Assembly (NCBI GenBank): GCA_903860135.1
Contig: CAIOPG010000006.1
Location: 21,117 to 85,116 of the forward strand
From: Candidatus Omnitrophota bacterium
Lineage (GTDB): Bacteria; Omnitrophota; Gorgyraeia; Zapsychrales; Fredricksoniimonadaceae
Reading direction: 5' to 3'
DNA: 64,000 bases
The position numbers were made by a program, and so were the translations under genes. A model generated the notes under the pieces. That model searched no databases and was not told the DNA's origin. It saw only the letters and a list, made by a program, of their open reading frames with translations. Within the stretch, counting starts at the first letter, position 1, and each line of letters begins with the position of its first letter. Of the stretch, positions 11,259 to 62,909 are shown in pieces.

Positions 11259-13466
11259 TTGAATATAAGAGTGATAGCGCACAGATGCTTGATGCTTTTT
11301 TTGATGCTGACTTTAGCGGCGTCAGATGTGCGTGTCTATGCGCAGGGAGTTCCCCCACCCGGCACCCGCCTGGCCTTGAGCCCTGTTTTCGCGCCGCCGC
11401 TACTCAAGGGCATCAAGGTGTTCCGCAACGATCCTTTTCGTTTTGATTTCATTTTGGATAAGGGGGATGTCCATCAACCGCTGCCCAGCGAACTTGAAAT
11501 AAAGCGCCTGATCAAATACTTCCTCGCTTCTTTGACGGTGCCCGAGAAAGATTTGTGGGTCAATTTAAGCCCTTATGAAAAAGACCGCATTGTGCCCGAA
11601 GCCTTTGGCCAGACCGAAATGGGGCGTGACTTACTGGCTCAAGACTACATTCTCAAACAGATAACAGCGTCAGTGATTTATCCTGATGAAAAAGTCGGCA
11701 AGGAATTTTGGTCTAAAGTCTATGCCGAAGCTCAGAAACGCTACGGCACCACCGACATCCCCGTCGACACTTTCAACAAAGTCTGGATCACCCCCGCTAA
11801 AGCCACCGTCTACGAACACCAAGACGCCGCCTATGTTGTCGAATCCAGGTTAAAGGTCATGTTGGAGTCCGATTATAAAGCCGCTATAGAAAATAAGGAA
11901 TTCGCACGTAGGGGCGGGTCCGTGACCCGCCCTATTTTATTAAATACGCCCCCAGCGTCACCCGCCCCCGCCGCAGCGTGGGGCGGGCATGGGAGGGGGG
12001 ATGACATCGCCAAACAAGTCCTCCGCGACGTCATCATCCCTATCCTCAACAAAGAAGTCAACGAAGGCCAAAACTTCGCCACCCTGCGCCAGGTCTACAA
12101 TTCCCTTATCCTTGCCACTTGGTATAAGCGTAAAGTCAAAACCAGCATCATGGGCAAGGCGTACGTCGATCAGAAGAAAGTTTCTGGCATTGACATCGCC
12201 GACAAGAACGAAAAAGAAAAGATCTGGTCTCAATATGTTGAAGCTTTCAAGAGGGGTGCTTTTAATCTGATCAAGGAAGAGAAAGACACGACGACTCAAG
12301 AAATGATCCCGCGGCAGTATTTTTCCGGTGGGGCGGATATGTCGATGGAGGTTTTTGAGGTAACAGATGCGGCCATGCCAGCAGAGGTAAATATTGATAA
12401 TTGCAGTATCGTAAATGTTGATGGGGGTATGCTGTTAGTGAATTCCGGTCTATCTAATCGCAAATGGGTAACAACTGATTTATTTGAACACAATCCACGG
12501 AAGTTTATGTATTCTGTAAAAATGTCTGGCCTTGCCAGGCTATTAAAACCACCAGCACAAGGCGATCCAATTTCGTATTCACTTGCTTTGATCAGTGATA
12601 GTTATTTGAAAACATTTAATCGAGGTGGTGGTGGCAATGTTGGATTAGTCTTTGATTTTGCGGATGAGGATGTTCTGGCAATTTTGGCATCGATGAACGA
12701 TATCGCGGCCTTTGATAAGACAGAGGAGACGCAACGTGAATTCATTAAAAAACAATTAAAACGTGATCCTAGTAATGTTATGTATCAAACTATTGTTGAC
12801 AATAGTCCTCCTAGGCAGCTTGCTATTGTGCCTGAAGAATTGATTAGGGCTTCAATCAAGGCAGGAAATAAGAATAATGAAGTAATTGTTAAGAATAATT
12901 TAACTCTGCAACCTAAAGCAATTATCTTGATTGTAAGGTGTCAGGGAGGATCACGTTTGTTTCGGGAAGATGTCGATGCCTTAAAGGTTAATCCAATGTT
13001 AAGTGAGGTCTATTCTGCAATGACAGCTGGGAAATTACCAGTTGTTATTGTCGGTGAAAATGGTTCCCCATTGAAGACTGCTAGGAGAATCTTTAAGCAT
13101 ATGTTTAGGGATCTTCAGGAAACAAGACCGTTCTTTTTTGAAAAGAAGTCTGGCCCATCGCCGGCAAAGTCCGGGTTTATAGGATGGATCGGTGTGTTCG
13201 TGAAGCAAAATCCTTCTGCTATTACACGTATAGATCGTGGCCAGAAGAATAGTGACAATGCCGAGAAGCTTGGCGGTATCGACCTTGATCCGGCCAAGAT
13301 CGACTTAAGTACAAAGAATTCCGGCGGCGAAATTGCGTTCAACCTCGACCCCGCGATGCTCGCCCGTATGCAGCATGCTTCTGGGATTTCGCCTGTTATT
13401 GTCAGTGTGCACCCGATGGAAAGCCTTTCGGCATTTCTGGGGATTGTGAAGCCGGGAGGGCGGTAG
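11259..13466 (+). CDS. Secreted protein of an uncharacterised paralogous family (paralog A, 735 aa)
   Basis: Signal peptide ending VYAQ. A roughly 300-aa N-terminal domain is highly similar to the 54826 gene (LIKYFLASLT, EEDLWVNLSPYE, GTTDIPVDTFNKVWIT, LKVMLESDY, EVNEGQNFA, PR.YFSGG). The last about 40 aa also match (DPAMLARMQ / DPIMVAEFQ). The central and C-terminal portions are AT-rich. TTG start; GTG at 11271 or ATG at 11292 are alternatives. Confidence 0.8.
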   Translation: MNIRVIAHRCLMLFLMLTLAASDVRVYAQGVPPPGTRLALSPVFAPPLLKGIKVFRNDPFRFDFILDKGDVHQPLPSELEIKRLIKYFLASLTVPEKDLWVNLSPYEKDRIVPEAFGQTEMGRDLLAQDYILKQITASVIYPDEKVGKEFWSKVYAEAQKRYGTTDIPVDTFNKVWITPAKATVYEHQDAAYVVESRLKVMLESDYKAAIENKEFARRGGSVTRPILLNTPPASPAPAAAWGGHGRGDDIAKQVLRDVIIPILNKEVNEGQNFATLRQVYNSLILATWYKRKVKTSIMGKAYVDQKKVSGIDIADKNEKEKIWSQYVEAFKRGAFNLIKEEKDTTTQEMIPRQYFSGGADMSMEVFEVTDAAMPAEVNIDNCSIVNVDGGMLLVNSGLSNRKWVTTDLFEHNPRKFMYSVKMSGLARLLKPPAQGDPISYSLALISDSYLKTFNRGGGGNVGLVFDFADEDVLAILASMNDIAAFDKTEETQREFIKKQLKRDPSNVMYQTIVDNSPPRQLAIVPEELIRASIKAGNKNNEVIVKNNLTLQPKAIILIVRCQGGSRLFREDVDALKVNPMLSEVYSAMTAGKLPVVIVGENGSPLKTARRIFKHMFRDLQETRPFFFEKKSGPSPAKSGFIGWIGVFVKQNPSAITRIDRGQKNSDNAEKLGGIDLDPAKIDLSTKNSGGEIAFNLDPAMLARMQHASGISPVIVSVHPMESLSAFLGIVKPGGR

Positions 13467-13533
13467 GCTTATTTATCCGTGTTAAACGGCAAGGGTTCAA
13501 ACGACGATAAATATGACAATTATAAGAAATCGG

Positions 13534-13561
13534 TAGACAATTTGTTCCACATTTGTATAAT
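13534..13561 (+). promoter_or_regulatory. Putative sigma70 promoter for tRNA-Lys (TAGACA, 16-nt spacer, TATAAT)
   Basis: TAGACA 13534-13539. TATAAT 13556-13561. About 30 nt upstream of the mature tRNA 5' end. Confidence 0.4.
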
Positions 13562-13591
13562 ATCGTCTCGCAGTTTTATGCCGCTCCTTGC

Positions 13592-13664
13592 GGGCCTCTA
13601 GCTCATCTGGTAGAGCAAGTGACTCTTAATCACTTGGTACCGAGTTCGACTCTCGGGAGGCCCA
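13592..13664 (+). tRNA. tRNA-Lys (anticodon CTT)
   Basis: Cloverleaf folded by hand: acceptor GGGCCTC/GAGGCCC, D-stem GCTC/GAGC, anticodon stem AGTGA/TCACT with loop CTCTTAA, T-stem CCGAG/CTCGG with TTCGACT loop, discriminator A. Length 73 nt; CCA is not encoded. Confidence 0.85.
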
Positions 13665-13672
13665 CTATTTAG

Positions 13673-13708
13673 AAAAGCCGTATCCCTTTTGGGATATGGC
13701 TTTTCTAT
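13673..13708 (+). terminator. Intrinsic terminator downstream of tRNA-Lys
   Basis: 14-bp stem aaaagccgtatccc / gggatatggctttt with a tttt loop. Confidence 0.6.
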
Positions 13709-13762
13709 TTCTTGAGAGCCGACCGAGAGGAGAAGGAGCCCCGCAGGGCGACTGGAGGGCAC

Positions 13763-13781
13763 CGACTCTCGGGAGGCCCAC
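13763..13781 (+). repeat. Direct repeat of the tRNA-Lys 3' end (19 nt identical, here followed by CCA)
   Basis: cgactctcgggaggcccac at 13763-13781 equals 13647-13665 of the intact tRNA. Confidence 0.8.
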
Positions 13782-13985
13782 CATATTAACGACGAAGAAG
13801 CTTCTCTTTAACTGGGGGAGCTTTTTTGTGATCTTCCCACGAAAAAGTGGACACAACGAAGGGGTGGTGACAGTATGAGAACTAGCTCAAAAAACGGAGG
13901 TGTTCAGTGGCAGGAGAATCGAACAAGAAAAAGCAGTTTGACCGTGAATTTAAAATGTCTGCGGTCAAGACCTGATAGCTCATCT

Positions 13986-14010
13986 GTTGGAGCAAGTGAC
14001 GATTTGTCGA
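13986..14010 (+). repeat. Degenerate copy of the tRNA-Lys D-arm and anticodon stem (23/25 nt)
   Basis: tagctcatctgttggagcaagtgac versus tRNA tagctcatctggtagagcaagtgac at 13599-13623. Confidence 0.75.
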
Positions 14011-14096
14011 GTACAAGGATTATTTGCAGGATATTAGTGAGGCCTCTTTTACAATCTCTTCTTGAGATTGTTGAGCAATAAAAATCATTTCCCCCC

Positions 14097-14125
14097 TTGC
14101 ATTTTCCATAAATAGAGAGTATATT
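14097..14125 (+). promoter_or_regulatory. Putative sigma70 promoter (TTGCAT, 17-nt spacer, TATATT)
   Basis: TTGCAT 14097-14102. TATATT 14120-14125. Confidence 0.45.
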
Positions 14126-14132
14126 TAAAACA

Positions 14133-14319
14133 TAGACAAGGTCTCACTGAGTTGTAAGACCTAACACGGCCGAACAGGCCGTGACATTTATCGGGCAAGG
14201 TTGTCCGTAAATATAAAGTATAGAAGCTTTAGATATAGTCCTGCAAAGGGCTGGCCCAAAAGGGCGGAAGACAAAGACGTCTTCAATTCATCATCAATGA
14301 ATTGAAGACGTCTTTTTTT
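14133..14319 (+). ncRNA. Candidate small structured RNA or leader of about 190 nt (promoter to strong terminator), function unknown
   Basis: Bounded by the 14097 promoter and the 14274 terminator. Internal perfect hairpins ggtctcactgagttgtaagacc and cacggccgaacaggccgtg. No convincing ORF. Confidence 0.35.
14274..14319 (+). terminator. Strong intrinsic terminator
   Basis: 18-bp perfect stem aagacgtcttcaattcat / atgaattgaagacgtctt, loop catca, then a T run. Confidence 0.75.
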
Positions 14320-14500
14320 GTTTCAATGTTGAAAATCGGCAGAAGGTTTCAAATCAGATAAATGGAGGATCTATGGGGAAAGTAAATTGTTTGGGAAGGG
14401 ATTCGCCTTCTGGAGGGAGGTCGTAGCATTGTTGGGCGTGTGTTGTTTTAATAGGGAAGGTAGAAAACAAATCAAAGGTCAATAACAAAGGAGTAATCAC

Positions 14501-46120: not shown

Positions 46121-46149
46121 GATGAAAATCATCGTTTTTCGTCAGCCCT

Positions 46150-46178
46150 TGTTTTGTAAAAGTCCCGTATGTTATATT
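46150..46178 (+). promoter_or_regulatory. Putative extended -10 promoter (TTGTTT, 17-nt spacer, TGtTATATT)
   Basis: GTATGTTATATTTC at 46168-46180, the same motif as at the other three sites. Ends at the 5' end of the structured element. Confidence 0.3.
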
Positions 46179-46179
46179 T

Positions 46180-46351
46180 CTTATAGCCGATAAAGGTAAA
46201 CCCGGGGAAACCCGGGGACACAAAGCGACAGACCTAATGTGCGCCATCGGGTAGTTGGGTGAAGGTGTTGATGGGGTTTTGTGGTTGGCGTAAGATGGTG
46301 GCTGCGTTGCCGAAGCGCGAGGGGAGATTCCCCAGCTTTTATCGGCTATAG
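46180..46351 (+). promoter_or_regulatory. Second c-di-GMP-I (GEMM)-like structured RNA candidate, with no obvious downstream gene
   Basis: GGUAAACccgggGAAAcccgggGACACAAAGCgacagaCCUAAu...CGGGUAGuUgGG...GUUGAUGG parallels the Vc2 motif blocks. A 15-bp outer stem pairs cttatagccgataaa with tttatcggctataag. The insertion is larger than in the canonical aptamer. Confidence 0.45.
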
Positions 46352-46363
46352 TTGATCTTGAAA

Positions 46364-46394
46364 TAAAAAAGGGAGCCGTTTGGCTCCCTTTTTT
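46364..46394. terminator. Bidirectional intrinsic terminator (A-run, GC stem, T-run)
   Basis: aaaaaaGGGAGCCgtttGGCTCCCtttttt. Ends the + strand structured-RNA unit and the convergent - strand ompA/LysM gene. Confidence 0.75.
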
Positions 46395-46412
46395 GTGGTC
46401 AGGAATAATATT

Positions 46413-47423
46413 TTATTCGATCGGGATAATGATAACCGTGCCCTTTTTCAGCTTGTTGGGATTCTTGATGCGGTTCTGGTTGATCTCATAAAGATATTTC
46501 CAGCGGTTGCCGTTGCCCATCTCATTCTTGGCGATCTTCCAGAGGGAATCATTGGGCTGAATCGTGTATTCACGTGTTGAAACATTCGGAGCGGACTCCA
46601 GGTTTTCTTTCTGCTCCATCGTGAATTTGTTTGGATCCTGGTTTTCAACAACAGCATCGGCCGGGATCTGGTCGGCGGGGACATTGAATTCCTCGACTTC
46701 GGCGATCATGAACTGGGCGTTTCTGTCTTTCTGCATGCCGGCCAGATCTTTTACCGGGGCCACAGCATCGAGCTTGCCGCGGGAAACGATCTTGATGCGT
46801 TCTTCGGCGATGCCACTGCGCAACATATAACCCTTGACGGCATCACTGCGTTTCTTGCCCAGCTTGAGGTTGTATTCATCTGAACCGCGCGCATCGCAAT
46901 TGCCTGTAATAAGGATGGATGCTTCGGGATTTTTCTCGAGCGTCTTTACCGCTTTGCTCAGGATAGGGATGTGGTCATCGCGCAATTCCGCTTTGTTGTA
47001 ATCAAAGTAAATTTTGACATTCCGGATGATCTTTTTAATGAGCAGCGATGCTTTGGGAGCAGCTGCCTGGGGTTCCACCGGTTTGACTTCCTCATTGTTC
47101 TGTCCATCATTGGCTTGGTAGTCATAGATCACTTTAAGTACATAAACGTAGCCACGGTTGCCCCAGTCTTTCTTGACTGAACCAGCCTGTTTGGGCCACC
47201 ACCAGAAACCGCCGCGGGCATCCTTCACCGGAGCCGGTAAGGCATCGGTGGGCCACCAGCTGAAGCGTTGCTGAAGGACCTTTAAATCACCGTCGCGCTT
47301 TGCCTCGCGCGCCGCCTTGGTAACAAACTGCGCATGGGCGGTGGTTGGCAGTGTCAGTACGGCTGCAAAAACCGTCAGGCATACCAATAAAACATTGCGG
47401 GAAAAACTGGAACTTTTGTTCAT
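46413..47423 (-). CDS. OmpA-family protein with a C-terminal LysM domain
   Basis: Signal peptide MNKSSSFSRNVLLVCLTVFAAVLTLPTTAHA. OmpA_C motif NCDARGSDEYNLKLGKKRSDAVKGYM. LysM (YTIQPNDSLWKIA...GTVIIIP). The start is chosen at the MNKSSS codon. Confidence 0.8.
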   Translation of the reverse strand: MNKSSSFSRNVLLVCLTVFAAVLTLPTTAHAQFVTKAAREAKRDGDLKVLQQRFSWWPTDALPAPVKDARGGFWWWPKQAGSVKKDWGNRGYVYVLKVIYDYQANDGQNNEEVKPVEPQAAAPKASLLIKKIIRNVKIYFDYNKAELRDDHIPILSKAVKTLEKNPEASILITGNCDARGSDEYNLKLGKKRSDAVKGYMLRSGIAEERIKIVSRGKLDAVAPVKDLAGMQKDRNAQFMIAEVEEFNVPADQIPADAVVENQDPNKFTMEQKENLESAPNVSTREYTIQPNDSLWKIAKNEMGNGNRWKYLYEINQNRIKNPNKLKKGTVIIIPIE

Positions 47424-47524
47424 AAGAACCCCTTTGATGATATTTAAAATATAAGATAGGTTTGATAATATCATATTTTCAAGAAAGCGGAATAAAAGTT
47501 TTGGTTTTGTGGTATAAGAGGAGT

Positions 47525-48061
47525 ATGGATTTTCAACAAGCATGGGAAGAAACCCTGAAAAATACACAGATCGTGCGCCGGCGTGTTTCCTCTTTACATA
47601 CGTTCGACGATACCCGTGTGCCGTATATGTTTTTATCCCCTTCTTTAATCAACGACGGGGATACGGTTGTGCGTAAAGGGGAAGTGGTGGTGCAGAAGCC
47701 GTCGTTGATCCTTCCTCCCAATATGCCCCGTTTTGACGGTTTTGATTTCGGGCAGGAAGCGGATGCGGATCAGGGGGCGGTCGTCAGTTTTCTCATGATG
47801 CGCGGCATATCTTTCCCTTCGATGAAATACAACAATACAACGCATTCCCTTGATGTTTTTGAGGGTGGGATTGACCGTGCGGTGTCATTCTTTGCCAATC
47901 AACTTGAGCGTGAGGAAAATGTGTCCTGCGGCCTTGTCACGGGTCATGAAGAAACCTGGCCTTTTTCCATCCTTATTTTTATTTGTGCCCAGGTCGCGCG
48001 CAATAGTGAATTTGACCTTAATCGCCTGATGGACGATTATCGCCGCCATCATCCAGACTAA
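47525..48061 (+). CDS. Hypothetical cytoplasmic protein
   Basis: ORF with an AGAGGAG RBS. No recognisable motifs. Confidence 0.4.
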   Translation: MDFQQAWEETLKNTQIVRRRVSSLHTFDDTRVPYMFLSPSLINDGDTVVRKGEVVVQKPSLILPPNMPRFDGFDFGQEADADQGAVVSFLMMRGISFPSMKYNNTTHSLDVFEGGIDRAVSFFANQLEREENVSCGLVTGHEETWPFSILIFICAQVARNSEFDLNRLMDDYRRHHPD

Positions 48062-53189: not shown

Positions 53190-54014
53190 ATGCTGAATTT
53201 CAAGGTTGATACGTCCACGTGCATCAATTGCGGCCTTTGCGCCAGCGATTGTCCGGCGAAGATCATTATGATGGGGGACAACGGTCCTGCGATCGCGACT
53301 GCGGATGAAGGGCGTTGTTACAGATGCCAACATTGCCTGGCGATTTGTCCGAAAGGGGCTGTTTCTATCCTGGGGGTTCTGCCATCAGCTTGCGCCCCTC
53401 TCGAAGGGAATCTGCCGTCAGCGGACCAGGTCGAAATCCTGATCAGGGGGCGTCGTACGGTACGCCGTTATCAGGATGAGAATCTTGATCCGGCTTTGAT
53501 CGCGCGGCTGCTGAATGTCGCCTGGCAGGGTGCTAGTGCCCGAAATGAGCGCAAGGTATTGCTGACGGTCATCGATGACCGCAAGGTCATGGAGGCTTTT
53601 CGCGCGGAGACGCTGGGCGCACTGGCACGCATGATCCGTGACAACAAGCTCCCGCCCGGACGCGAACGTTTCATTGATATTGTGGCGGCATGGGAAAACA
53701 AAAAGATCGATATTATATTTCGTGGTGCTCCACACCTCGTTGTGGCTTCTGCGCCTAAAACCTGCGCGACGCCCGAGGCAGATTGCCTGATCGCCTTGAC
53801 GACCTTCGAGCTCTTTGCCAGCAGCCTTGGTGTGGGTACGGTATGGTCGGGTATGTTGCAATGGGTTATGCTCGAGATATGGCCTGCCTTGAGGGGAAAA
53901 CTTGGGATACCGGAAGATCATGTGATAGGTTTTTCGATGGTCTTCGGGAAGCCGGCGGTAAAATACACCCGTACGGTGCGGCATGAGCCGGCCTGGATCG
54001 CGAGGGTTCATTGA
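53190..54014 (+). CDS. Ferredoxin-domain nitroreductase family protein
   Basis: Two Cys motifs CINCGLCASDCP and CYRCQHCLAICP, then a nitroreductase-like domain (RRTVRRY). Confidence 0.7.
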   Translation: MLNFKVDTSTCINCGLCASDCPAKIIMMGDNGPAIATADEGRCYRCQHCLAICPKGAVSILGVLPSACAPLEGNLPSADQVEILIRGRRTVRRYQDENLDPALIARLLNVAWQGASARNERKVLLTVIDDRKVMEAFRAETLGALARMIRDNKLPPGRERFIDIVAAWENKKIDIIFRGAPHLVVASAPKTCATPEADCLIALTTFELFASSLGVGTVWSGMLQWVMLEIWPALRGKLGIPEDHVIGFSMVFGKPAVKYTRTVRHEPAWIARVH

Positions 54015-54673
54015 CAGGGATGGTGCCTGGACAAATGACCCGGGGGCGCACACTAGATCACGCCGCGGCTGTTTATGATATTTTAAGCCCGCTCATGCTG
54101 TTGGGGCAGGAACAAATGATGGCGCGACCGTGCCTGAAATATCTGGAAGATCCGGTCATTCATGACGTGCTTGACCTGGGTTGCGGGACAGGCACGCTGA
54201 CGCTTGAGATCGCCAGGCTATTGACAGCCCGTTGCGGCCAGGTGGTGGGCATTGATGCCGCCCCGCGCATGATCGAGGTTGCCAGGAAGAAAGCCGGGAT
54301 TATCCGTAATGTCCGTTTTGACGTTGTGGCCGCCGAAGCACTGCCTTACCCGGATCAAAGTTTCGACCATGTCCTTTCCACTTTCTTTTTTCATCATATA
54401 GATATGGAACTTAAATTGCGCGCCATCGACGAAGCGTTCCGTGTGCTCAGGCCGGGCGGCTCGCTCATCATTGTTGATGTTGATGCCCCGACCAATCTTT
54501 TCGGGCGAGTTTGTGCCTGGGCAGGGTATTATCTCTTCAAGCAGGAAGAAATACGCGAGAATATTGAAGGCAAACTATGCCTGGCGGCCGAACGTTCAAG
54601 GTTCGGCGCTTTCAAGCGCCTGGCGCATTATCAAGGGTATGTATCGGTATTGCAATTGACCAAGGGTTTTTGA
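54011..54673 (+). CDS. Class I SAM-dependent methyltransferase
   Basis: Motif I VLDLGCGTGTLT and post-motif LRPGGSLIIVD. Confidence 0.8.
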   Translation: MTGMVPGQMTRGRTLDHAAAVYDILSPLMLLGQEQMMARPCLKYLEDPVIHDVLDLGCGTGTLTLEIARLLTARCGQVVGIDAAPRMIEVARKKAGIIRNVRFDVVAAEALPYPDQSFDHVLSTFFFHHIDMELKLRAIDEAFRVLRPGGSLIIVDVDAPTNLFGRVCAWAGYYLFKQEEIRENIEGKLCLAAERSRFGAFKRLAHYQGYVSVLQLTKGF

Positions 54674-54695
54674 CACCCCCGCCCTTTTGTGTGTC

Positions 54696-54724
54696 TTTCC
54701 TTTTTTTCATGTATATGTTATATT
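54696..54724 (+). promoter_or_regulatory. Putative extended -10 promoter (TGtTATATT) for paralog B
   Basis: GTATATGTTATATT at 54711-54724, the same motif as upstream of paralog A and both riboswitch-like units. The -35 is weak. Confidence 0.3.
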
Positions 54725-54825
54725 GTTTTCGTCATTATTTTCTCAAATTAGATTAGTTGTCATTCGCCCAAAAAAATTTGGCTGAAAGAAATTTTCTTTC
54801 AAGTTATTTAATAAAAGGGGAAGAT

Positions 54826-56436
54826 ATGGTACAAAAAACGCTAACCTTTCGCTGGATCTCAATCTGGGTTTTGGTGAGTTTTCTGGCCACCGCCGTGATC
54901 CCGCCCAAAGTGTACGCGCAGGCACTGAACCTGCCGGCGCCCGGGGCTATGGTGGGGTTGACCCCGGCGTATGTGCCGATCCTGATGAAGGGCGTGCGGG
55001 TGCATCCCGAGAATCCGCTTCTTTTTGATTTTATTGTGGACAGCGGGAAATCAAATTTTAAAGCAGAAAGCCCGGCGTTCAAGGCGGAGTCACAGAAGCT
55101 CATCAAGTATTTCTTGGCGTCGTTGACCATCAAGGAAGAAGATCTTTGGGTTAATTTAAGCCCGTATGAAAACAACCGCATCATCCCGCAGGTACTGGGC
55201 AAGACCGAGATGGGCCGCGATATGCTGGCGCAGGATTATATCCTCAAGCAATTGACCGCTTCGCTTATATATCCCGAGAAGGACCTGGGCAAGGCGTTCT
55301 GGAACCGGATCTACACCAAAGCCAAGGAACAGTTTGGCACAACCGATATCCCGGTCGATACCTTTAACAAAGTCTGGATTACCTCCGACAAGGCAAAAGT
55401 CTTTGAACGCAACAATGTCGCTTATATCGTCGGCGCGCACCTGAAAGTCATGCTCGAATCCGATTATCAAGCTGCGCAGGCTGTTGGCGTGCGTACAGGT
55501 GATCCTGTTATCACACCCGCCCCCGCCGCAGTGTGGAGAGGGCAAGGGAGGGGGGCGTCAGAAGAACTTGCCAAACAGGTCATCCGCGACGTCGTCATCC
55601 CCGAGATCGAAAAAGAAGTCAACGAAGGCCAGAATTTTGCAATGCTGCGCCAGATGTTCTATTCGATGATCCTCGCCTCTTGGTACAAGCTCGCTTTGAA
55701 AGATGCCCTGTTGAATCAGGTGTACAGTAATAAAGATAAAACCAGCGGGGTTCTCTCCGATGACCCGGCGGTAGCCACCAAGATCTACGAACAGTACCTG
55801 CAGGCGTATAAGAAAGGCGTGTTCGATTACATCAAAGAAGATATGGACGCTGTCACCCATGACCCTCTGCCCAGAAAGTATTTCTCGGGGGGGGTCGTTG
55901 ATTTGGCTAGCAAGGTGGAAGTTGAACGTCAGTCGGGTCGTTTGAATCTGACGGAAAATACCCAGCTCATATCTTCAGTATTCCTTTTGATGGTAAAGTT
56001 TTCGTCGGTGTTGGGAGGGCGTCTTTCATTGGCCAAACATTTGTCTTTGGTTGCGCTGATGACGGGTCTGTTCGCATGTCAGCCTGCTGTCCAGCCTCCG
56101 GCTGATCTTTTCTATGATTTAAGTAATTCCGACTTGATTACTTACCCTATTCAACTTGCGCCTGCCGATGCTACAAGGGTCTTTGTTCCCTTCAAGGTGG
56201 ATCATTCTGCGGATGTCGGTGGTATCGCGCTCAATGGGAAGCTGATGGACTTGGATGTGGCCAAAGACGGGAAGGGCGTTGAGATGAAATTCGATCCGAT
56301 CATGGTGGCGGAGTTTCAGCGGGGAAATTTTACGGGGGTTGAGGGGGTTATCCTCAATATTGTTCCGATGGTCAGCCCCTTATCGTTGTTGGGTCTGGAT
56401 AAAGCTTCGGTGGAGTTGGTGTCGGCCAAAGGGTGA
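54826..56436 (+). CDS. Secreted protein of the same uncharacterised paralogous family (paralog B, 559 aa)
   Basis: Signal peptide ending VYAQA. N-terminal about 300 aa are highly similar to the 11259 gene, with nucleotide identity around 70-80% in conserved blocks. The C-terminal tail is also similar. The gene is 31 nt upstream of tpsA. Confidence 0.8.
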   Translation: MVQKTLTFRWISIWVLVSFLATAVIPPKVYAQALNLPAPGAMVGLTPAYVPILMKGVRVHPENPLLFDFIVDSGKSNFKAESPAFKAESQKLIKYFLASLTIKEEDLWVNLSPYENNRIIPQVLGKTEMGRDMLAQDYILKQLTASLIYPEKDLGKAFWNRIYTKAKEQFGTTDIPVDTFNKVWITSDKAKVFERNNVAYIVGAHLKVMLESDYQAAQAVGVRTGDPVITPAPAAVWRGQGRGASEELAKQVIRDVVIPEIEKEVNEGQNFAMLRQMFYSMILASWYKLALKDALLNQVYSNKDKTSGVLSDDPAVATKIYEQYLQAYKKGVFDYIKEDMDAVTHDPLPRKYFSGGVVDLASKVEVERQSGRLNLTENTQLISSVFLLMVKFSSVLGGRLSLAKHLSLVALMTGLFACQPAVQPPADLFYDLSNSDLITYPIQLAPADATRVFVPFKVDHSADVGGIALNGKLMDLDVAKDGKGVEMKFDPIMVAEFQRGNFTGVEGVILNIVPMVSPLSLLGLDKASVELVSAKG

Positions 56437-56467
56437 AACTGGCTTCGATTGCGTTAAGGTTATATAA

Positions 56468-59400
56468 ATGCTGAGACATATCATCAAAAGCTTATTGGGC
56501 ATATGGTGTTTGATCCTGGGGTTGACTTGTTGTGCATTGGCAGAACCGCCACAGGTTAAGGTTGTTGACGGTGACGGCACTCTTTCCCAGACGCAGGCTC
56601 CTGCGGCATCGACAACGGATTTTACGGTGTCAGGTCATATTGTAGGTGAAACCAGCCGGGCCGACATTCTTCCTGATGAGACGTGGAATGTACGCTTTTC
56701 AAATCCAAACGACAGCTTTCTTCTTCGTGTCCTTGACCCTTCGGGTACACGCATTCTTGGGAACTTGAATATTTATTACGGGAGCTTTGTCCTGTTGAAC
56801 ACCCATGGGATCGATATAGGCGCGTTGGCGAGGGTGAATGTCAATCATGCTGTTTTTGTTGCCTCGACGATCGACATTCAAAATCGTGATTTCATAGCGG
56901 GGAAGTATGCTTTTGATGCTGCGCACGGAGCCGCCAACAGAACTGTAGTTAACCACGGTTTGATCAGGACAATGGGTTCCAGTTCGGTCGTTTTGTTGGG
57001 TCAGGCCGTTGAGAATGCAGGGGTGATTGAGGCGCCACTCAGCAAGGTTGCGCTAGCCGCTGGTGATGCCGTGACATTGAGCCTCGATGCCAATGGGTTG
57101 ATCGGTGTGGAGGTCGCGGATCCGGTGAAAAGCAAGGTCCTTGACGGGGATGGCCGTGAGGTCGCCGCGCAGGTTGCCAATACGGGGACGATCACCGCCG
57201 ATGGCGGGACTGTGTTGATTAGCGCCAGGTCCTTGAATGATGTTTTCAACCGCAGCGTGAACCTTGAGGGGCGTATTCAGGCTAATCAGGCCCTGCAAGG
57301 TGCTGACGGCACCATCAGGATCGTGGCTTCGGATAAAATTGTTAATACGGGCGTGCTGGCAACGCGCAACGGCAAGCTTTATCTTACCAGTGACGGCGCG
57401 ATAGAAACGTCGGGGCATCTGGCGGCCGGGACGCTGGTGGAGCAAGGGGCGTCATGGCGCATGGGCGGTGAGGTGCAGGTCGGGACGGCCAGCATGGACA
57501 ATGCCGACGGCGCCGCGGTTTTGAGTACGGGCAGTTATACCGGGACGTTTGAGGATTCCGGCGATATCATTGTTGACAACGACGCCCGTATCACGCTGAC
57601 CGGTGCGACCGTGTTTGGGGCGGACACGGATCCCGGGACGCAGGCCCATGATGGCAACGGCATTTTCACCATGAACACCGGGTCTTCGATCATCGGCGGG
57701 GGGCATGCCTTGACGCTGTATTCCGCCGACAGGGATTCCGCCGGGGGAGCGGCGTCGTCGGTCCTTCGCGATATCAGCGGGGTCAACGGGTTGAACCTTT
57801 ATCGTTCTTCGGCGGCAACGGCCAGTCCTGCCTATACGCTGCGTGGAACCCTGGACGCAGGGGCGTACAATCTGGACATCGACGGGGATATTGTCTTGGA
57901 TCCAGGAGGCGCGTTGACCAATGCGGCTGATATTTTTATCACGGGTAACTGGACTAATAACGGTGGCACGTTCACGCCAGGGGCGAGCAGGGTGAATTTT
58001 ATCAGCACCATAGCGGATCAGCTGATCAACGGGACTGCCGTGGCACAGGTGTTTTATGACATCAGGGTGGCCAAGGGCAGTAAGACGTTAAGCGTGGGGG
58101 GCAGTACAACGGCATTGTCCTTGCACGACTTGGCCTTGGACAGTGGCATTTTCGCGACGGGGACGGCAACGACGGTCAATGTGGCGGGCAATGTGGTCTT
58201 TAATTCATTGGCAGTGACCGGATTTAATGGATTAACGCTCGATGCCGACACGTTCACGGCCAACGATGTGGTCAATATGATCGGCAACACGGCGCGCACC
58301 TATTACCCGGTTACGGATGCCGTGCTTGATGCGATGATCGCCGGCAGTCAGGTCAAGACCTTGATCATCGGCGTGCCGTATGACCAGGATGCATATGGCT
58401 GGCTGGCCAATTACTGGGGCGGCAGTGTCCCCGTCGGGACGAACCGCGTGAATATGGTTGATCGTAATTATGTTGCGTACATCGCGCATGTGAAGGACAG
58501 GATCGCCTCGGCGGGTTCAAGCCTGAAGCTTATCGTCGAGTTTGGTAATGAGTATAACCTCCATCCGGAGTGGTTTGGCGGTGATAGCCGGAACTGGTTC
58601 TCGGCGTTGACGGCGGCGGTCAGTGCTGTTCACGCGGCCTTCGGCAACAGTGTCAGGGTTTCAACAGCCACAGGTGATATTCCAGCAGATTTTGTGACGA
58701 CCATCCGGACTGGTGTTGACCTCGTTGGCGTGAACACTTATCGTGGGTTGGGCAACACCAGTTCGCTGGTAGCTGATTGGAATACGGCATGCTCTCTGAC
58801 GGGGATGGCGACACCTCTTTATGTCTCTGAATCGGGGTTCCCCTCGTGGGTCTGGGATGGTGGAGAGGCACAGCAGGACATCAATGTTCTTTCGTTGCGT
58901 GATGAGTTCCTGAAGAACAATCTTGGCATAACGTTCATGAGTTTTGAAGATAACATGAGGAAGGGCGGCTCGTTGTTTACCCAGGATTCACGTGAAGATT
59001 ATTGGGGATGGTTGCGCGCCAACGGGACGCATAAGGCGGTGTATGACACCATGTCGGCCGCTTGGGCATTGCCGGAGTTTCAGGCCGGGGCGGCGCATAT
59101 TAATGTTGCCGGTGACTGGGTCAATAACGGTGGCACATTTACCGCGGGCACAAGCACGGTGACGTTCGATGCGTCCAATGCCGGACACATCGTTAAATCC
59201 GGGACGTCGGCGTTTGCGGATGTTGTTTTTGACGATGGGGGCAAAGGCGGAGCTTGGACAGTAGCGACGGATCCCATGCAGGTCAACGGGAATTTGTCGC
59301 TGACCAGTGGCCATGTGACCCTTGGCATGAAGCTTATGGTTGGGGGCAATCTTGACATTGTCAACGCCACACTCGATGCGGTGGGTAAGACCATTGAACT

Positions 59401-59965
59401 TGCGGGGGACTGGCGCAATGCTGGACTTTTTATCCACGGGAATAATACTGTGACGCTCACCGGAGATGACCAGACGGTAGCAGGGGACAATACTTTCTAT
59501 AATTTGACCAAGACAAGTGCTAAAGGATCGGCACTGACTTTTGAGGCTGGATCTGTGCAGGCGATCGCGGGGGCACTGACATTAACAGGGTGTTCGGATG
59601 TTTACATGCGCTTGCGTTCGGACGTTCCCGGGAAGCAGTGGAAGATGCGTGCGGCTTCGGTTGATATGCAATGGCTTGACTTGAAGGACTCCTGGAATAC
59701 TGGAGACGATATCACGCCTTTGAATTTTCTGGATAGTGGCAATAATACAGGTTATGCCTTTGATCCTGATTATCCTGCTTTATCGACGGGTATTTTCCGT
59801 TTGGATGTCCTAGATATTCATGGGTTGACGTTTAATCTGGCTGTTGCACATGAGGCTCGTCTTGCGGCGCAGTTTCTGGGGTCATCCTTGATAGAAATGG
59901 ATGTGCCGTTTCCGGGAACTCCGCCCGTTATGTTTGGTTTATCCCATAAGTTCATGGTTGAATAA
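56468..59965 (+). CDS. Two-partner secretion exoprotein (TpsA/filamentous-haemagglutinin-like) with an internal GH-A-clan-like glycoside hydrolase segment
   Basis: Signal peptide. TPS-domain-like N-terminus (SNPNDSFLLRVLDPSGTRILGNLNIYYGSFVLLNTHGIDIGALARVNVNHAVFVASTIDIQNRDF). Gly/Thr/Asn-rich beta-helix-like repeats. An internal segment has VEFGNEYN (acid/base-like) and LYVSESGFPSW (nucleophile-like). Confidence 0.7.
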   Translation: MLRHIIKSLLGIWCLILGLTCCALAEPPQVKVVDGDGTLSQTQAPAASTTDFTVSGHIVGETSRADILPDETWNVRFSNPNDSFLLRVLDPSGTRILGNLNIYYGSFVLLNTHGIDIGALARVNVNHAVFVASTIDIQNRDFIAGKYAFDAAHGAANRTVVNHGLIRTMGSSSVVLLGQAVENAGVIEAPLSKVALAAGDAVTLSLDANGLIGVEVADPVKSKVLDGDGREVAAQVANTGTITADGGTVLISARSLNDVFNRSVNLEGRIQANQALQGADGTIRIVASDKIVNTGVLATRNGKLYLTSDGAIETSGHLAAGTLVEQGASWRMGGEVQVGTASMDNADGAAVLSTGSYTGTFEDSGDIIVDNDARITLTGATVFGADTDPGTQAHDGNGIFTMNTGSSIIGGGHALTLYSADRDSAGGAASSVLRDISGVNGLNLYRSSAATASPAYTLRGTLDAGAYNLDIDGDIVLDPGGALTNAADIFITGNWTNNGGTFTPGASRVNFISTIADQLINGTAVAQVFYDIRVAKGSKTLSVGGSTTALSLHDLALDSGIFATGTATTVNVAGNVVFNSLAVTGFNGLTLDADTFTANDVVNMIGNTARTYYPVTDAVLDAMIAGSQVKTLIIGVPYDQDAYGWLANYWGGSVPVGTNRVNMVDRNYVAYIAHVKDRIASAGSSLKLIVEFGNEYNLHPEWFGGDSRNWFSALTAAVSAVHAAFGNSVRVSTATGDIPADFVTTIRTGVDLVGVNTYRGLGNTSSLVADWNTACSLTGMATPLYVSESGFPSWVWDGGEAQQDINVLSLRDEFLKNNLGITFMSFEDNMRKGGSLFTQDSREDYWGWLRANGTHKAVYDTMSAAWALPEFQAGAAHINVAGDWVNNGGTFTAGTSTVTFDASNAGHIVKSGTSAFADVVFDDGGKGGAWTVATDPMQVNGNLSLTSGHVTLGMKLMVGGNLDIVNATLDAVGKTIELAGDWRNAGLFIHGNNTVTLTGDDQTVAGDNTFYNLTKTSAKGSALTFEAGSVQAIAGALTLTGCSDVYMRLRSDVPGKQWKMRAASVDMQWLDLKDSWNTGDDITPLNFLDSGNNTGYAFDPDYPALSTGIFRLDVLDIHGLTFNLAVAHEARLAAQFLGSSLIEMDVPFPGTPPVMFGLSHKFMVE

Positions 59966-59985
59966 AGGGTGAGGTTCTTGTACGT

Positions 59986-61746
59986 ATGCGCAAAGGAATG
60001 TGGGTAATAGTTGTCATCGGATTTTGGGTGTTTTTGGTCAATGCCAGCGGAGAACTATTTGCCGCTGTCCCTGACATTGAACAGGCGAGTCAGTCTTCCG
60101 TTATAGGGAAACGTGTCCCTCAGGGGATTGAAAAGGCCATGGATGATGTCCAAGCTACGTTTAAATCCAGGATGATCAAAGAGGCACTGGATGCCGTAGA
60201 ATCTGCGTTGCAAGGTGCTTCGCCTAAGGCTCTGCCGCTTGTTCCGGATAACAACGGGGTTTCTTTTTTTGTCAGGAAGGTGCAGGTGAAAGATTCGCAG
60301 TTGTTGACAGAGACTTCCCTGGCGCCTTTGCTTGAGCCTTTTGAGGGCCACCAGCAGACGATTCGGGCGATGCAGGGTCTTGCAGATATGATCACGGCTG
60401 AGTACCGCAAGCGCGGATACCTGAGCAGCCAGGCCTATATTGCGCCTCAAGAAATAGCGGATGGCGTCTTTACGGTTTCTGTGCTCGAGGGGCGTATCGG
60501 TCGGGTCATTTTCGAAGGGAACAAGCATTATTCCACAGAGGTGCTCAGTCGTTACTGCGTTATCCATGAAGGGGATTTCTTCCGTTACCAGAAATTGCAG
60601 GAATCCGTCTTTAAGCTCAATGCGCACCCTGACAGGGTTGTTCGGGCGATCATCCGTCGAGGCAGTGCCCTCGGGCAGACGGATATTATCTTTAAGGTTG
60701 ATGAAAACAAATTGTTGGCGTCAAACCTTTTGATGGATAACCGCGGCTCGAAGCCTGTCGGTCAGCATCGTGGTGGGCTAGGCTTGCGCCGTGACAATCT
60801 GTTTGGGCAGGATGATACCCTGCGCATGGGCACCATGATCGGGAAGGCGTTCAGCTCGGGATTTGTGGAGCATGCCTTGCCCATTCAAGCGTTGGGTTCC
60901 GTCTGGAAAACAGGGGTTAGTATGGCCAAGTCCGCACCCCGGAAGCAATACAAGCCTTATCGGGTCAGCAGTACTTCCATGGATTACTGGGGCAGGCTCG
61001 AGACTAGGTTTATTACCACAGAAAGCCTTGCCCTAGATTGGCGCACAGGGATGGATATTAAAGAGAGCCGCACCATGGTGCTCTCTGGGACAGACAGCCG
61101 TGAACGGCTTAGGGTTATCCGCTTCGGGCCTACGCTGACCCTGCGCGATGACGGTGGCATGACGGTGATCGATGATCAGTTCTCGCTCGGACTTAATGCG
61201 ATGGGGGCGGTGCTGAGTAGCGGGTCTTCGCAGCGGGCAGGAGTAACACCGGCTTTCTTTGCTTCGGACTTCAGCCTTGAGCGCCTACAGCGGATGCCGC
61301 TGAAGACGCGGTTATCTTTAAAGGGAAGATCGCATTTGTCGGGTGATAAACAGCCGGCGTCAGAACAAATGCTCTTGGGCGGGGCGGACACGGTGCGCGG
61401 GTATCCTGAAGGAGACTATTTTGCTGATCAGGGTGTGTTGATGAATGCGGAATATTTGGTGCCGTTTTTTTTCATTCCTGATGCATGGAAGATGCCAGGC
61501 ACAAAGAACCGTATGCGTGATGCGCTTGATTTTGCGTTTTTTTATGATCATGGCCTCGGTTGGGTGAAGTCTCCGGTCAACGGCCAGAAAGCGTCGACGA
61601 GCTTGCGCGGAACGGGTGTTGGCGTGCGCGTACGTATGGCGGCTGATGTTTACTTTACCATGGATCTTGCCTACGCTATTGGTGCCAAGCCTGATCTGAG
61701 CGACAATCATTTCAGGATCCACTCCGCCATACAAGCTAATTTCTAG
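59986..61746 (+). CDS. TpsB (ShlB/FhaC family) outer-membrane transporter
   Basis: Signal peptide. POTRA-like region then a 16-strand barrel-like C-terminal domain ending ...IQANF. Immediately downstream of the TpsA. Confidence 0.8.
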   Translation: MRKGMWVIVVIGFWVFLVNASGELFAAVPDIEQASQSSVIGKRVPQGIEKAMDDVQATFKSRMIKEALDAVESALQGASPKALPLVPDNNGVSFFVRKVQVKDSQLLTETSLAPLLEPFEGHQQTIRAMQGLADMITAEYRKRGYLSSQAYIAPQEIADGVFTVSVLEGRIGRVIFEGNKHYSTEVLSRYCVIHEGDFFRYQKLQESVFKLNAHPDRVVRAIIRRGSALGQTDIIFKVDENKLLASNLLMDNRGSKPVGQHRGGLGLRRDNLFGQDDTLRMGTMIGKAFSSGFVEHALPIQALGSVWKTGVSMAKSAPRKQYKPYRVSSTSMDYWGRLETRFITTESLALDWRTGMDIKESRTMVLSGTDSRERLRVIRFGPTLTLRDDGGMTVIDDQFSLGLNAMGAVLSSGSSQRAGVTPAFFASDFSLERLQRMPLKTRLSLKGRSHLSGDKQPASEQMLLGGADTVRGYPEGDYFADQGVLMNAEYLVPFFFIPDAWKMPGTKNRMRDALDFAFFYDHGLGWVKSPVNGQKASTSLRGTGVGVRVRMAADVYFTMDLAYAIGAKPDLSDNHFRIHSAIQANF

Positions 61747-61810
61747 CTTTTTTATTCCAAATTCAGGATCACGGCAGACAGGGAAGAGCCTAGGAACGTA
61801 AGAACGATTC

Positions 61811-62260
61811 TTACGTTGTCGGAGCTTGTTTCTTTAATCTGTACGAATGGGTGTAATGTTCTTTGAAAGAGGGGTACATAAAAAGAAGCCATATACCTAG
61901 GTAAAGGTAGCCTCTGAGCGGTGTGTCGTGGAAGGCGGAACGAACATTCAGAAATTCATAATTATGACCGACGATGAAGGTGATGGCACGCATGACGAAT
62001 AACCATTGATAAAAGCGGATCCAGCGGGGCGGTTGTGAAAAAGCGCGTTCAAAGAGAGGCACAAGGCACAGGCAGGTTACGATAACATCGAGCATAGCCA
62101 AGGCGTACCAGATCATGGACACGGGATTGAGACGCCAGAGCACATTATAGTAAATAAAAGCCGAACCATCGGGCACTCCGATGGACAGCACGGAAAGTAT
62201 TGCGAATACCGCAAAGACGATCAGATAAAGCTTTAATCCGAGATTGATTGGCAAACGCAT
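61811..62260 (-). CDS. Hypothetical integral membrane protein (4 predicted TM helices)
   Basis: Hydrophobic segments. One of only two minus-strand genes in the window. No motif recognised. Confidence 0.4.
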   Translation of the reverse strand: MRLPINLGLKLYLIVFAVFAILSVLSIGVPDGSAFIYYNVLWRLNPVSMIWYALAMLDVIVTCLCLVPLFERAFSQPPRWIRFYQWLFVMRAITFIVGHNYEFLNVRSAFHDTPLRGYLYLGIWLLFMYPSFKEHYTHSYRLKKQAPTT

Positions 62261-62354
62261 GACTTTATTGTAAAATAACTTTGCTGTTTAGGGAAAATAT
62301 ATTTGAATTATTGGCATCATCACGCAAAGGGAAGATAAAACAAGGAGGAGCAAG

Positions 62355-62909
62355 ATGCTGGTACTTTTGGTCATTCTAGGGTTGGTGGTGCTCGCGATTA
62401 TAACGGTGAGCGGAGTGTACAATGCGCTTGTTCAGTTGCGTGTGAGCGTGCAGAATGCATGGTCGCAGATCGATGTCCAGCTCAAACGGCGGCATGACCT
62501 GATCCCGAATCTTGTGGAAACGGCCAAGGGGTATATGGCGCACGAGCGCGCTACGCTGGAGAATGTTATCAAGGCCCGTCAGATGGCGGTCGATGCCGGA
62601 TCATTGAAAGACAAGGTCGCGGCGGAAAATATGCTCACCTCAACTTTAAGAAGCTTGATGGCTGTTTCTGAAAATTATCCGAACCTCAAGGCGGATCAGA
62701 CCATGTTGCGCCTGCACGAAGAATTGACCGCGACCGAGAACAAGATCGGGTTTGCGCGCCAGTATTACAACGACGAGGTGAATCGGTTAAATATCGCGGT
62801 ACAGGCTTTCCCTTCTAATATGATTGCCTCCCAGTTCGGGTTTAAGTCGGGCGAATTCTTTCAGGTGGAAGTTCCCGAAGAACGTCAGGCACCTCAGGTG
62901 AAGTTCTAG
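62355..62909 (+). CDS. lemA: LemA family protein
   Basis: N-terminal TM helix then VSGVYNALVQLRVSVQNAWSQIDVQLKRRHDLIPNLVETAKGYMAHE, a typical LemA sequence. Confidence 0.85.
   Translation: MLVLLVILGLVVLAIITVSGVYNALVQLRVSVQNAWSQIDVQLKRRHDLIPNLVETAKGYMAHERATLENVIKARQMAVDAGSLKDKVAAENMLTSTLRSLMAVSENYPNLKADQTMLRLHEELTATENKIGFARQYYNDEVNRLNIAVQAFPSNMIASQFGFKSGEFFQVEVPEERQAPQVKF

Follow-up and report, generated by a model that had tools for sequence, protein, structure and literature searches.

Two-partner secretion (TPS) systems, which make up type Vb secretion, are known mainly for exporting adhesins, cytolysins and the toxins of contact-dependent inhibition (CDI). In FhaB/FhaC of Bordetella, HMW1A/HMW1B of Haemophilus and EtpA/EtpB of enterotoxigenic Escherichia coli, the exoprotein gene precedes the transporter gene. 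The same order occurs in the locus described here, located at 54.6–61.8 kb of a 64,000-nt stretch of Candidatus Omnitrophota DNA (contig CAIOPG010000006.1, hereafter the window), where three long open reading frames (ORFs), all on the + strand, encode paralog B, a member of an unannotated protein family, the exoprotein TpsA and its transporter TpsB. What is noteworthy in this locus is a glycoside hydrolase (GH) domain of clan GH-A inserted in TpsA, together with the very large unannotated family of paralog B, which we define by its end domains famN and famC, rather than an operon link between the two. We consider it likely that TpsA and TpsB constitute an autonomous type Vb module exporting a fibre with a predicted GH-A glycosidase, and that paralog B is an independent gene co-transcribed with them by position.

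Giant and long proteins of Omnitrophota have been described as carrying signal peptides and mixed enzymatic domains, with GH2-type enzymes and secretion genes nearby (West-Roberts et al., 10.1101/2023.11.21.568195; 10.64898/2026.06.07.730766), and the passages searched in these two reports mention neither TPS systems nor famN/famC end domains. Haemagglutinin, type V secretion and glycoside hydrolases are not mentioned by Seymour et al. (PMC10066038). A limited literature search returned no TpsA with an embedded glycoside hydrolase and no relevant TPS system in Omnitrophota, which is a lead and no proof of novelty.

The three genes can be taken as real, since each has many homologues and the ratio of nonsynonymous to synonymous substitution rates (dN/dS) of paralog B is 0.22 against its 92%-identical orthologue at locus L004 (relatives are denoted by L and P handles throughout). 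Named homologues of all three proteins come from Omnitrophota only. An earlier note, made from the DNA sequence alone, had listed the order and strand of these ORFs, the lengths of 1165 and 586 amino acids (aa) for TpsA and TpsB, and spacers of 31 and 20 nt, all of which proved exact. Its start for paralog B at 54696 falls outside the ORF frame, which is open no earlier than a TTG at 54757 (559 aa). The ATG at 54826 is the most likely start, with AAAGGGG before it and a hydrophobic, signal-like helix after it, giving a protein of 536 aa.

The same note had called the second gene TpsA-like, and its N-terminus bears this out. A Pfam scan of aa 1–344 alone detected the TPS domain PF05860 at 44.9 bits (cut-off 33.5); the full-length protein gave no Pfam match of any kind and no TPS match above cut-off in NCBIfam, only the isolated N-terminus passing in Pfam, and TIGR01901 reached 20.9 bits, below its cut-off of 29.1. 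A phmmer search of the PDB aligned aa 32–348 to the TPS and β-helix regions of EtpA (8cpk, 6e-16) and HMW1 (2odl, 2e-14). Where the classical motifs are NPNL and NPNGI, the domain contains NPND (aa 79) and NTHGI (aa 111), the latter aligning with NPNG(V/I) of EtpA and HMW1; both motifs have diverged in sequence and kept their positions. TpsB comprises two POTRA domains followed by a ShlB-type barrel, in which VRGY corresponds to the Omp85 loop-6 motif (V/I)RG(Y/F); POTRA_2 and ShlB both score above their gathering thresholds, in agreement with the ShlB/FhaC type assigned earlier. TpsB orthologues (55–72% identity) always accompany TpsA, and about 10 clusters represent this TpsB. The two genes are adjacent in the window and in 8/8 relatives examined, with gaps of 0–43 nt in L001, L002/L006, L003, L086, L087 and the P0280 lineage and a convergent arrangement in the distant L088. 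Domains and adjacency together confirm a two-partner secretion pair; sequence comparison makes a role of TpsA and TpsB in type Vb secretion well supported, and secretion itself may be presumed.

The feature that sets this TpsA apart lies between aa ~590 and ~870, where the motifs GNEYN and SESGFPSW are visible by eye. An exhaustive phmmer search with this region returned 101 representative homologues, many within proteins of 2000–7000 aa. A profile (A3) built from 24 homologues of the domain, which share 26–73% identity, matched GH158 9oro best in the PDB (8e-16, 61 bits), followed by GH2-type 9fz9 (4e-11) and BuGH158 6pal (7e-10); numerous GH2 glucuronidases also matched, as did GH17 and GH72 enzymes with weaker scores. 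Among the same 24 homologues, Pfam recognized Glyco_hydro_2_C in 12 and Glyco_hydro_72 in 6. The AlphaFold (AF2) model of the domain has a predicted local distance difference test score (pLDDT) of 91.6 and a predicted template modelling score of 0.89, with strands and helices alternating. Foldseek aligned it to 131 PDB entries at E ≤0.001, led by GH39, GH2 and GH158 barrels with a probability of 1.0, at identities of just ~13–17% and TM-scores of ~0.6. N694, E695 and E788 are invariant in all 24 homologues. N694-E695 is at the end of the predicted fourth strand (domain positions 98–105) and E788 is in or at the end of the seventh (195–200), which is the catalytic arrangement of clan GH-A.

The domain is an insertion into the repeat region, because the unit W.NNGGTFT.G.S.V.F flanks it on both sides (aa 497 and 886). 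It is present in 6/6 close TpsA orthologues and absent from the distant Omnitrophota exoproteins P0127 and P0128, which have repeat sequence in its place. From profile and model, we consider TpsA a likely glycosidase-displaying exoprotein with predicted activity, as one half of the joint explanation. Its GH domain seems closest to GH158 and GH2-type enzymes, and our best guess for its substrates is β-1,3-glucan-type polysaccharides.

Paralog B belongs to a family of a different kind. Searches of Pfam, NCBIfam, PDB and PADLOC gave no match to it, and the family as a whole is without a model in Pfam or NCBIfam. It counts more than 2010 protein matches, all in Omnitrophota and most spanning the first ~65% of the query, and at least 582 matches in species genomes. 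Its members consist of a hydrophobic helix, a famN domain of ~350 aa, a variable middle and a famC domain of ~65 aa; inspection of C-termini found famC, with the motif GGIDLN...FDPAM...F.G..PVI..I.PI...LLGL, in most full-length members. The length of the middle varies between ~80 aa (paralog B) and over 5000 aa, and its cargo domains are very diverse, among them His_Phos_1 and the cytoplasmic-type Response_reg, GGDEF, NUDIX, Radical_SAM and HTH. The mix of NUDIX, GGDEF and Radical_SAM is also listed for published giant proteins (West-Roberts et al., 10.1101/2023.11.21.568195). Two descriptions in the earlier note hold for paralog B. Membership of an unknown family with a signal-like N-terminus agrees with a Kyte-Doolittle scan, in which the N-terminal helix is the sole hydrophobic segment, and the label of paralog is justified by 49% identity over ~355 aa to paralog A, the ORF at 11259–13466. 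Against L004, dN/dS falls to 0.14 in famN and 0.18 in famC and rises to 0.70 in the middle, a pattern which indicates that paralog B is functional and that selection keeps its two end domains. Judged by its sequence, paralog B is a minimal, cargo-less, frame-only member of the family.

Further observations concern the family itself. Members often occur in tandem arrays of 2–3 genes. In the fast-evolving middle of paralog B, aa 389–418 (55990–56079; MVKFSSVLGGRLSLAKHLSLVALMTGLFAC, MVKF...LFAC) resemble a lipoprotein signal peptide with a lipobox, and this stretch may be left over from a fusion, or else represent an internal start. The family is also found at 50–67% identity in several metagenome-assembled genomes deposited as 'uncultured Planctomycetales bacterium' (L011, L020, L022, L025 and others), a label that is probably wrong. 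famN/famC is among the largest unannotated protein families of Omnitrophota and frames many long multidomain proteins, and its conserved ends offer a handle to classify, and eventually localise, such proteins.

The earlier note had proposed a functional link between paralog B and the TPS pair, with paralog B as a partner, chaperone or immunity-like protein. We surveyed 79 loci (1.11 Mb with flanks), each with a family member at its centre and taken from genomes of different GTDB species, using hidden Markov models (HMMs) of the TPS domain, of TpsB and of the GH domain. No TPS domain and no ShlB-type TpsB turned up within 10 kb in any of these 79 loci from other Omnitrophota species; the single weak match (32 bits) is an 821-aa Omp85-like ORF, probably BamA. 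The same loci contain 23 additional family members, often in tandem. The 43%-identical full-length relative of paralog B in L005 likewise has no TPS neighbour, and a metagenome scan with the TpsB profile yielded one locus, L006, of the same lineage as L002. Seen from the TPS side, six orthologous lineages of GH-type TpsA/TpsB with upstream information could be compared. In the window and L004 (~92% identical), which represent one lineage, paralog B lies 31 nt upstream of TpsA. In L086, TpsA is preceded, after a 168-nt gap, by an ORF whose length is at least 1287 aa and whose C-terminus resembles a divergent famC (PGGIDM...IIPV; a weak match, HMM E 0.0016). The upstream gene is a divergent 126-aa ORF in L001 (222-nt gap), a YhcG nuclease gene in L002/L006 (~460 nt), a 234-aa and then a 40-aa ORF in L003 (264 nt, with a family member 5.7 kb further up) and a zinc alcohol dehydrogenase gene in the P0280/P0123 lineage (240 nt). 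An adjacent family gene is therefore missing in four of the six lineages, where gaps before TpsA measure 222–460 nt, and a search for family-gene remnants upstream of TpsA in L001, L003, L006, L088 and L089 (hmmsearch --max) found none below E 0.2.

These comparisons bear on the explanation that paralog B is a dedicated TPS accessory, be it a co-secreted partner, a periplasmic chaperone, an immunity-like protein or an anchor of TpsA, within a functional three-gene operon. The 31-nt gap devoid of a detectable promoter or terminator speaks for it, as do the conservation of the arrangement in L004, the famC-ending gene directly before an orthologous TpsA in L086, and the use of the TpsA-type GH domain as cargo in famN...famC proteins, which suggests a common extracellular compartment. 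Yet L004 is just ~8% diverged and hence not independent evidence, and the upstream genes of the window and L086 are not orthologous (536 versus at least 1287 aa; BLASTP E 0.18). A family thousands strong, set against about 10 clusters of this TpsB, with no TPS genes near its 79 surveyed loci and no adjacent member in most TPS lineages, also argues against an accessory role, as does tight same-strand packing, which is the default of this genome. We therefore regard this explanation as unlikely. A functional link between paralog B and the TPS pair is weakly supported, and the co-occurrence of family and TPS systems in related genomes, on which the proposed link depended, is largely lacking. As the other half of the joint explanation, the adjacency of paralog B and TpsA is probably a lineage-level arrangement with no dedicated partner.

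Co-transcription is a separate matter. Promoter and terminator scans stayed at background level with no match inside either spacer, and no Rfam family was found over 54000–62600. The anatomy permits a three-gene transcript, as neither spacer is long enough to hold a promoter or terminator. Relative to L004, the 31-nt spacer has 6/31 mismatches with the ribosome-binding site (RBS) kept. The region upstream of paralog B (54674–54825) has 9/152 mismatches, 5 of these in its last 144 nt, and no match to a sigma-70 consensus on the + strand. The palindrome within it lies ~25 nt before the start of paralog B and has one base changed in L004 (54800). Downstream of TpsB, a 608-nt gap holds an antisense gene. 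The spacing of paralog B and TpsA is itself uninformative on function, since short same-strand gaps are the default in the window: 33 of 49 consecutive same-strand gene pairs are at most 35 nt apart (median 9 nt), and the tightly spaced pairs just upstream include genes as unrelated as those for CorA, a nitroreductase and a methyltransferase. Short gaps alone are, as a caution, no sign of a functional operon in a tightly packed, single-strand genome. It is plausible that the three genes are transcribed together in this lineage, but not that paralog B acts as a dedicated partner. Horizontal transfer of the module was also considered and left without a compositional signal, as GC content and GC content at third codon positions of the three genes are within the range of the window.

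A further explanation concerns TpsA itself, which could be a plain adhesin or a CdiA-like CDI toxin, with a central domain that binds carbohydrate or has a structural role and is not catalytic. Most characterised TpsA proteins are indeed adhesins, cytolysins or CdiA toxins, and a Pfam scan of the isolated GH region of TpsA itself gave no match. Against this stand the invariance of both glutamates and of the preceding asparagine across homologues as divergent as those of the A3 profile, and a fold and profile that match active GH-A enzymes. A CDI toxin in particular was rejected, as TpsA has no VENN or pretoxin motif, TpsB rather than a small immunity ORF follows it (order A-B, not cdiB-cdiA-cdiI) and the next gene is antisense. 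We judge this explanation rather improbable.

Several points nevertheless weigh against the autonomous module with an independent paralog B. Besides the missing Pfam match, the β-helical fold of the TpsA repeats beyond aa ~348 is presumed rather than matched. Adjacency in two of six lineages exceeds a rough per-gene family density of 1–3% (nominal P about 0.01), in a small, post hoc sample where the assignment of L086 depends on a weak C-terminal match, and surface-protein genes may have a loose tendency to be neighbours. Moreover, a 915-aa gene without a Pfam match, of a length typical of famN/famC members, lies 53 nt after TpsB in the P0280 lineage (contigs of ERZ1426704 and ERZ1426828).

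The GH domain connects the two protein types in another way. Among ~98 representatives carrying it, 9 begin with famN, and 5 of those 9 also end with famC, which suggests domain exchange between TpsA and famN...famC exported proteins. P0184, P0190, P0230, P0238 and P0258 are famN...famC proteins of 4000–5200 aa with the TpsA-type GH-A domain as internal cargo. It could accordingly be argued that famN/famC proteins are themselves substrates of an Omp85/TpsB-type or other shared export route, neighbours of the TPS pair in a flexible 'surface protein' region. The signal-like N-terminus of paralog B, the common GH-A domain, the adjacency in two lineages and a gene for an ATPase of the type II secretion system kind 3 kb upstream fit such a route, as does the placement of Omnitrophota long proteins beside secretion genes and GH2-type enzymes in published surveys (10.64898/2026.06.07.730766; 10.1101/2023.11.21.568195). 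However, famN lacks a TPS domain (no PF05860 and no PDB match), the family far outnumbers TPS systems and occurs without them nearby, and its many cytoplasmic-type cargoes (Response_reg, GGDEF, Radical_SAM, HTH) fit outer-membrane translocation poorly, which makes a shared route very unlikely. It would be equally speculative, and we give it very little credence, to see in famN...cargo...famC the signature of an undescribed Omnitrophota-specific export or surface-display system, whose ends direct cargo ranging from none to multi-thousand-residue enzyme arrays to the surface and whose placement before the TPS pair in two of six lineages reflects real cooperation, e.g., docking onto or co-processing with the TpsA glycosidase fibre in an attack on prey or host envelopes.

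For the autonomous type Vb module, the following sequence of events can be envisaged. TpsA would be exported through Sec; by analogy with FhaB/FhaC, the POTRA domains of the Omp85-family TpsB would recognise its N-terminal TPS domain, and TpsB would thread it across the outer membrane. The repeat regions would then form an extracellular fibre displaying a clan GH-A TIM-barrel glycosidase with an intact Glu/Glu catalytic pair, either surface-bound or released. With a predicted activity and substrate most like those of GH158 endo-β-1,3-glucanases and GH2-type enzymes, its likely targets would be polysaccharide in the envelopes of prey or hosts, or in the matrix. Paralog B would be a separate gene, probably under the same promoter as TpsA, with a presumed function of its own and no part as a dedicated TPS component.

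Table 1. Coordinates of the features of the locus in the window, with amino-acid positions where these define a feature.
Feature	Position	Strand	Basis or remark
AT-rich intergenic region of 152 nt, candidate promoter/5' untranslated region (5'UTR) of the putative three-gene unit, RBS AAAGGGG at its end	54674–54825	+	Largest upstream gap of the neighbourhood
Perfect 9+9 palindrome TGAAAGAAA-T-TTTCTTTCA, candidate operator or 5'UTR hairpin	54783–54801		Read from sequence
Paralog B, 536 aa, cargo-less famN/famC member	54826–56436	+	ORF, homologues, dN/dS
Paralog B N-terminal hydrophobic helix, aa ~6–31, then ...VYAQA; candidate Sec signal peptide or signal anchor	54826–54918	+	Kyte-Doolittle; AF2 helix 3–24
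famN, conserved N-domain of ~350 aa, aa ~30–380	54913–55965	+	Family conservation
Paralog B short variable middle, aa ~381–459, at the cargo site of other members	55966–56202	+	Low pLDDT; dN/dS 0.70
famC, ~65–70 aa, GGIALN...FDP.MVAEF..GNFTGVEGVILNIVP...LLGL	56203–56415	+	Motif common to paralog A; pLDDT 84–91; dN/dS 0.18
Spacer of 31 nt, with the RBS-like TAAGG located 8 nt upstream of the ATG of TpsA	56437–56467	+	Sequence
TpsA exoprotein, 1165 aa	56468–59965	+	ORF, PF05860, PDB matches, orthologues
TpsA Sec signal peptide, aa 1–25, ...CALA/EPP	56468–56542	+	Hydrophobic segment 1–27; ALAEPP at aa 23; kept in orthologues
TPS secretion domain, aa ~30–330	56555–57457	+	PF05860, EtpA/HMW1 matches
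Repeat region before the insert, presumed β-helix, unit W.NNGGTFTPG.S.V.F at aa 497	57458–58234	+	Repeat unit; fold partly inferred
Inserted putative clan GH-A (β/α)8 glycoside hydrolase domain, aa ~590–870	58235–59077	+	Profile, AF2, Foldseek
Putative acid/base E695 (GNE)	codon 58550–58552	+	Invariance in homologues
Putative nucleophile E788 (SES)	codon 58829–58831	+	Invariance in homologues
C-terminal repeat region, unit W.NNGGTFT.G.S.V.F at aa 886, and ~60-aa tail	59078–59962	+	Repeat unit
Spacer of 20 nt with RBS-like GGGTGAGG	59966–59985	+	Sequence
TpsB transporter, 586 aa	59986–61746	+	Pfam matches above cut-off; orthologues
TpsB signal peptide	aa 3–28	+	
TpsB POTRA_2	aa 94–169	+	Pfam 2.5e-16, above cut-off
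TpsB POTRA	aa 170–211	+	Pfam 7e-8, above cut-off
TpsB ShlB/Omp85 barrel	aa 230–570	+	Pfam ShlB 2.9e-16 over aa 230–548, above cut-off
TpsB L6 (loop-6) motif VRGY, aa 470	61393–61404	+	Sequence; invariant in 4 aligned orthologues
Paralog A, 735 aa, famN...famC member	11259–13466	+	43 kb from paralog B; adjoins no TPS gene

The antisense gene after TpsB is a 149-aa ORF on the minus strand (61811–62260) with no Pfam match, which the contig's database record annotates as well; genes for LemA and then an M48 peptidase follow it, and L001 and L003 likewise have M48 peptidase genes close to their TPS pairs. Elsewhere in the tightly packed, almost entirely + strand window, 13467–14500 (1034 nt) and 46121–47461 (1341 nt) contain no + strand ORF of at least 150 aa, the latter being partly covered by a minus-strand ORF at 46413–47567.

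If the explanation is true, a TpsA with an intact clan GH-A glycosidase in its fibre widens the cargo repertoire of type Vb secretion and provides a concrete candidate, open to testing, for the means by which Omnitrophota, ultra-small and probably dependent on hosts or prey, attack foreign polysaccharide or remodel it. Among known systems, the locus resembles CdiB/CdiA/CdiI in that a TPS exoprotein and an Omp85 transporter are joined by a third gene of small to medium size. It differs from them in its order, (paralog B)-A-B instead of B-A-I, and in the VENN motif and downstream immunity ORF missing here; its third gene is one of a family that overwhelmingly occurs apart from TPS loci. Paralog B can be compared with the long and giant proteins of Omnitrophota, where famN/famC ends and a signal-like N-terminus occur on proteins of 2000 to >6000 aa with GH-A, NUDIX, GGDEF and Radical_SAM domains, although paralog B has just 536 aa and no cargo. 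The predicted enzyme shares with GH158 (BuGH158 6pal; 9oro) and GH2-type 9fz9 a (β/α)8 fold in which the ends of β4 and β7 bear the Asn-Glu acid/base and the Glu nucleophile, respectively. It departs from these enzymes in its low identity and TM-score, in its lack of a Pfam GH match and in being embedded in a TpsA fibre rather than free-standing or a lipoprotein. Finally, FhaB/FhaC, HMW1A/HMW1B and EtpA/EtpB have in common with TpsA and TpsB a Sec signal (predicted here) and TPS domain, a repeat-rich passenger and an adjacent Omp85 transporter. The locus lacks the HMW1C/EtpC-type glycosyltransferase gene of the HMW1 and EtpA systems, and it is distinguished from all three by NTHGI in place of NPNGI, by its Omnitrophota host and by the predicted GH-A TIM-barrel of ~280 aa inserted in the middle of the passenger.

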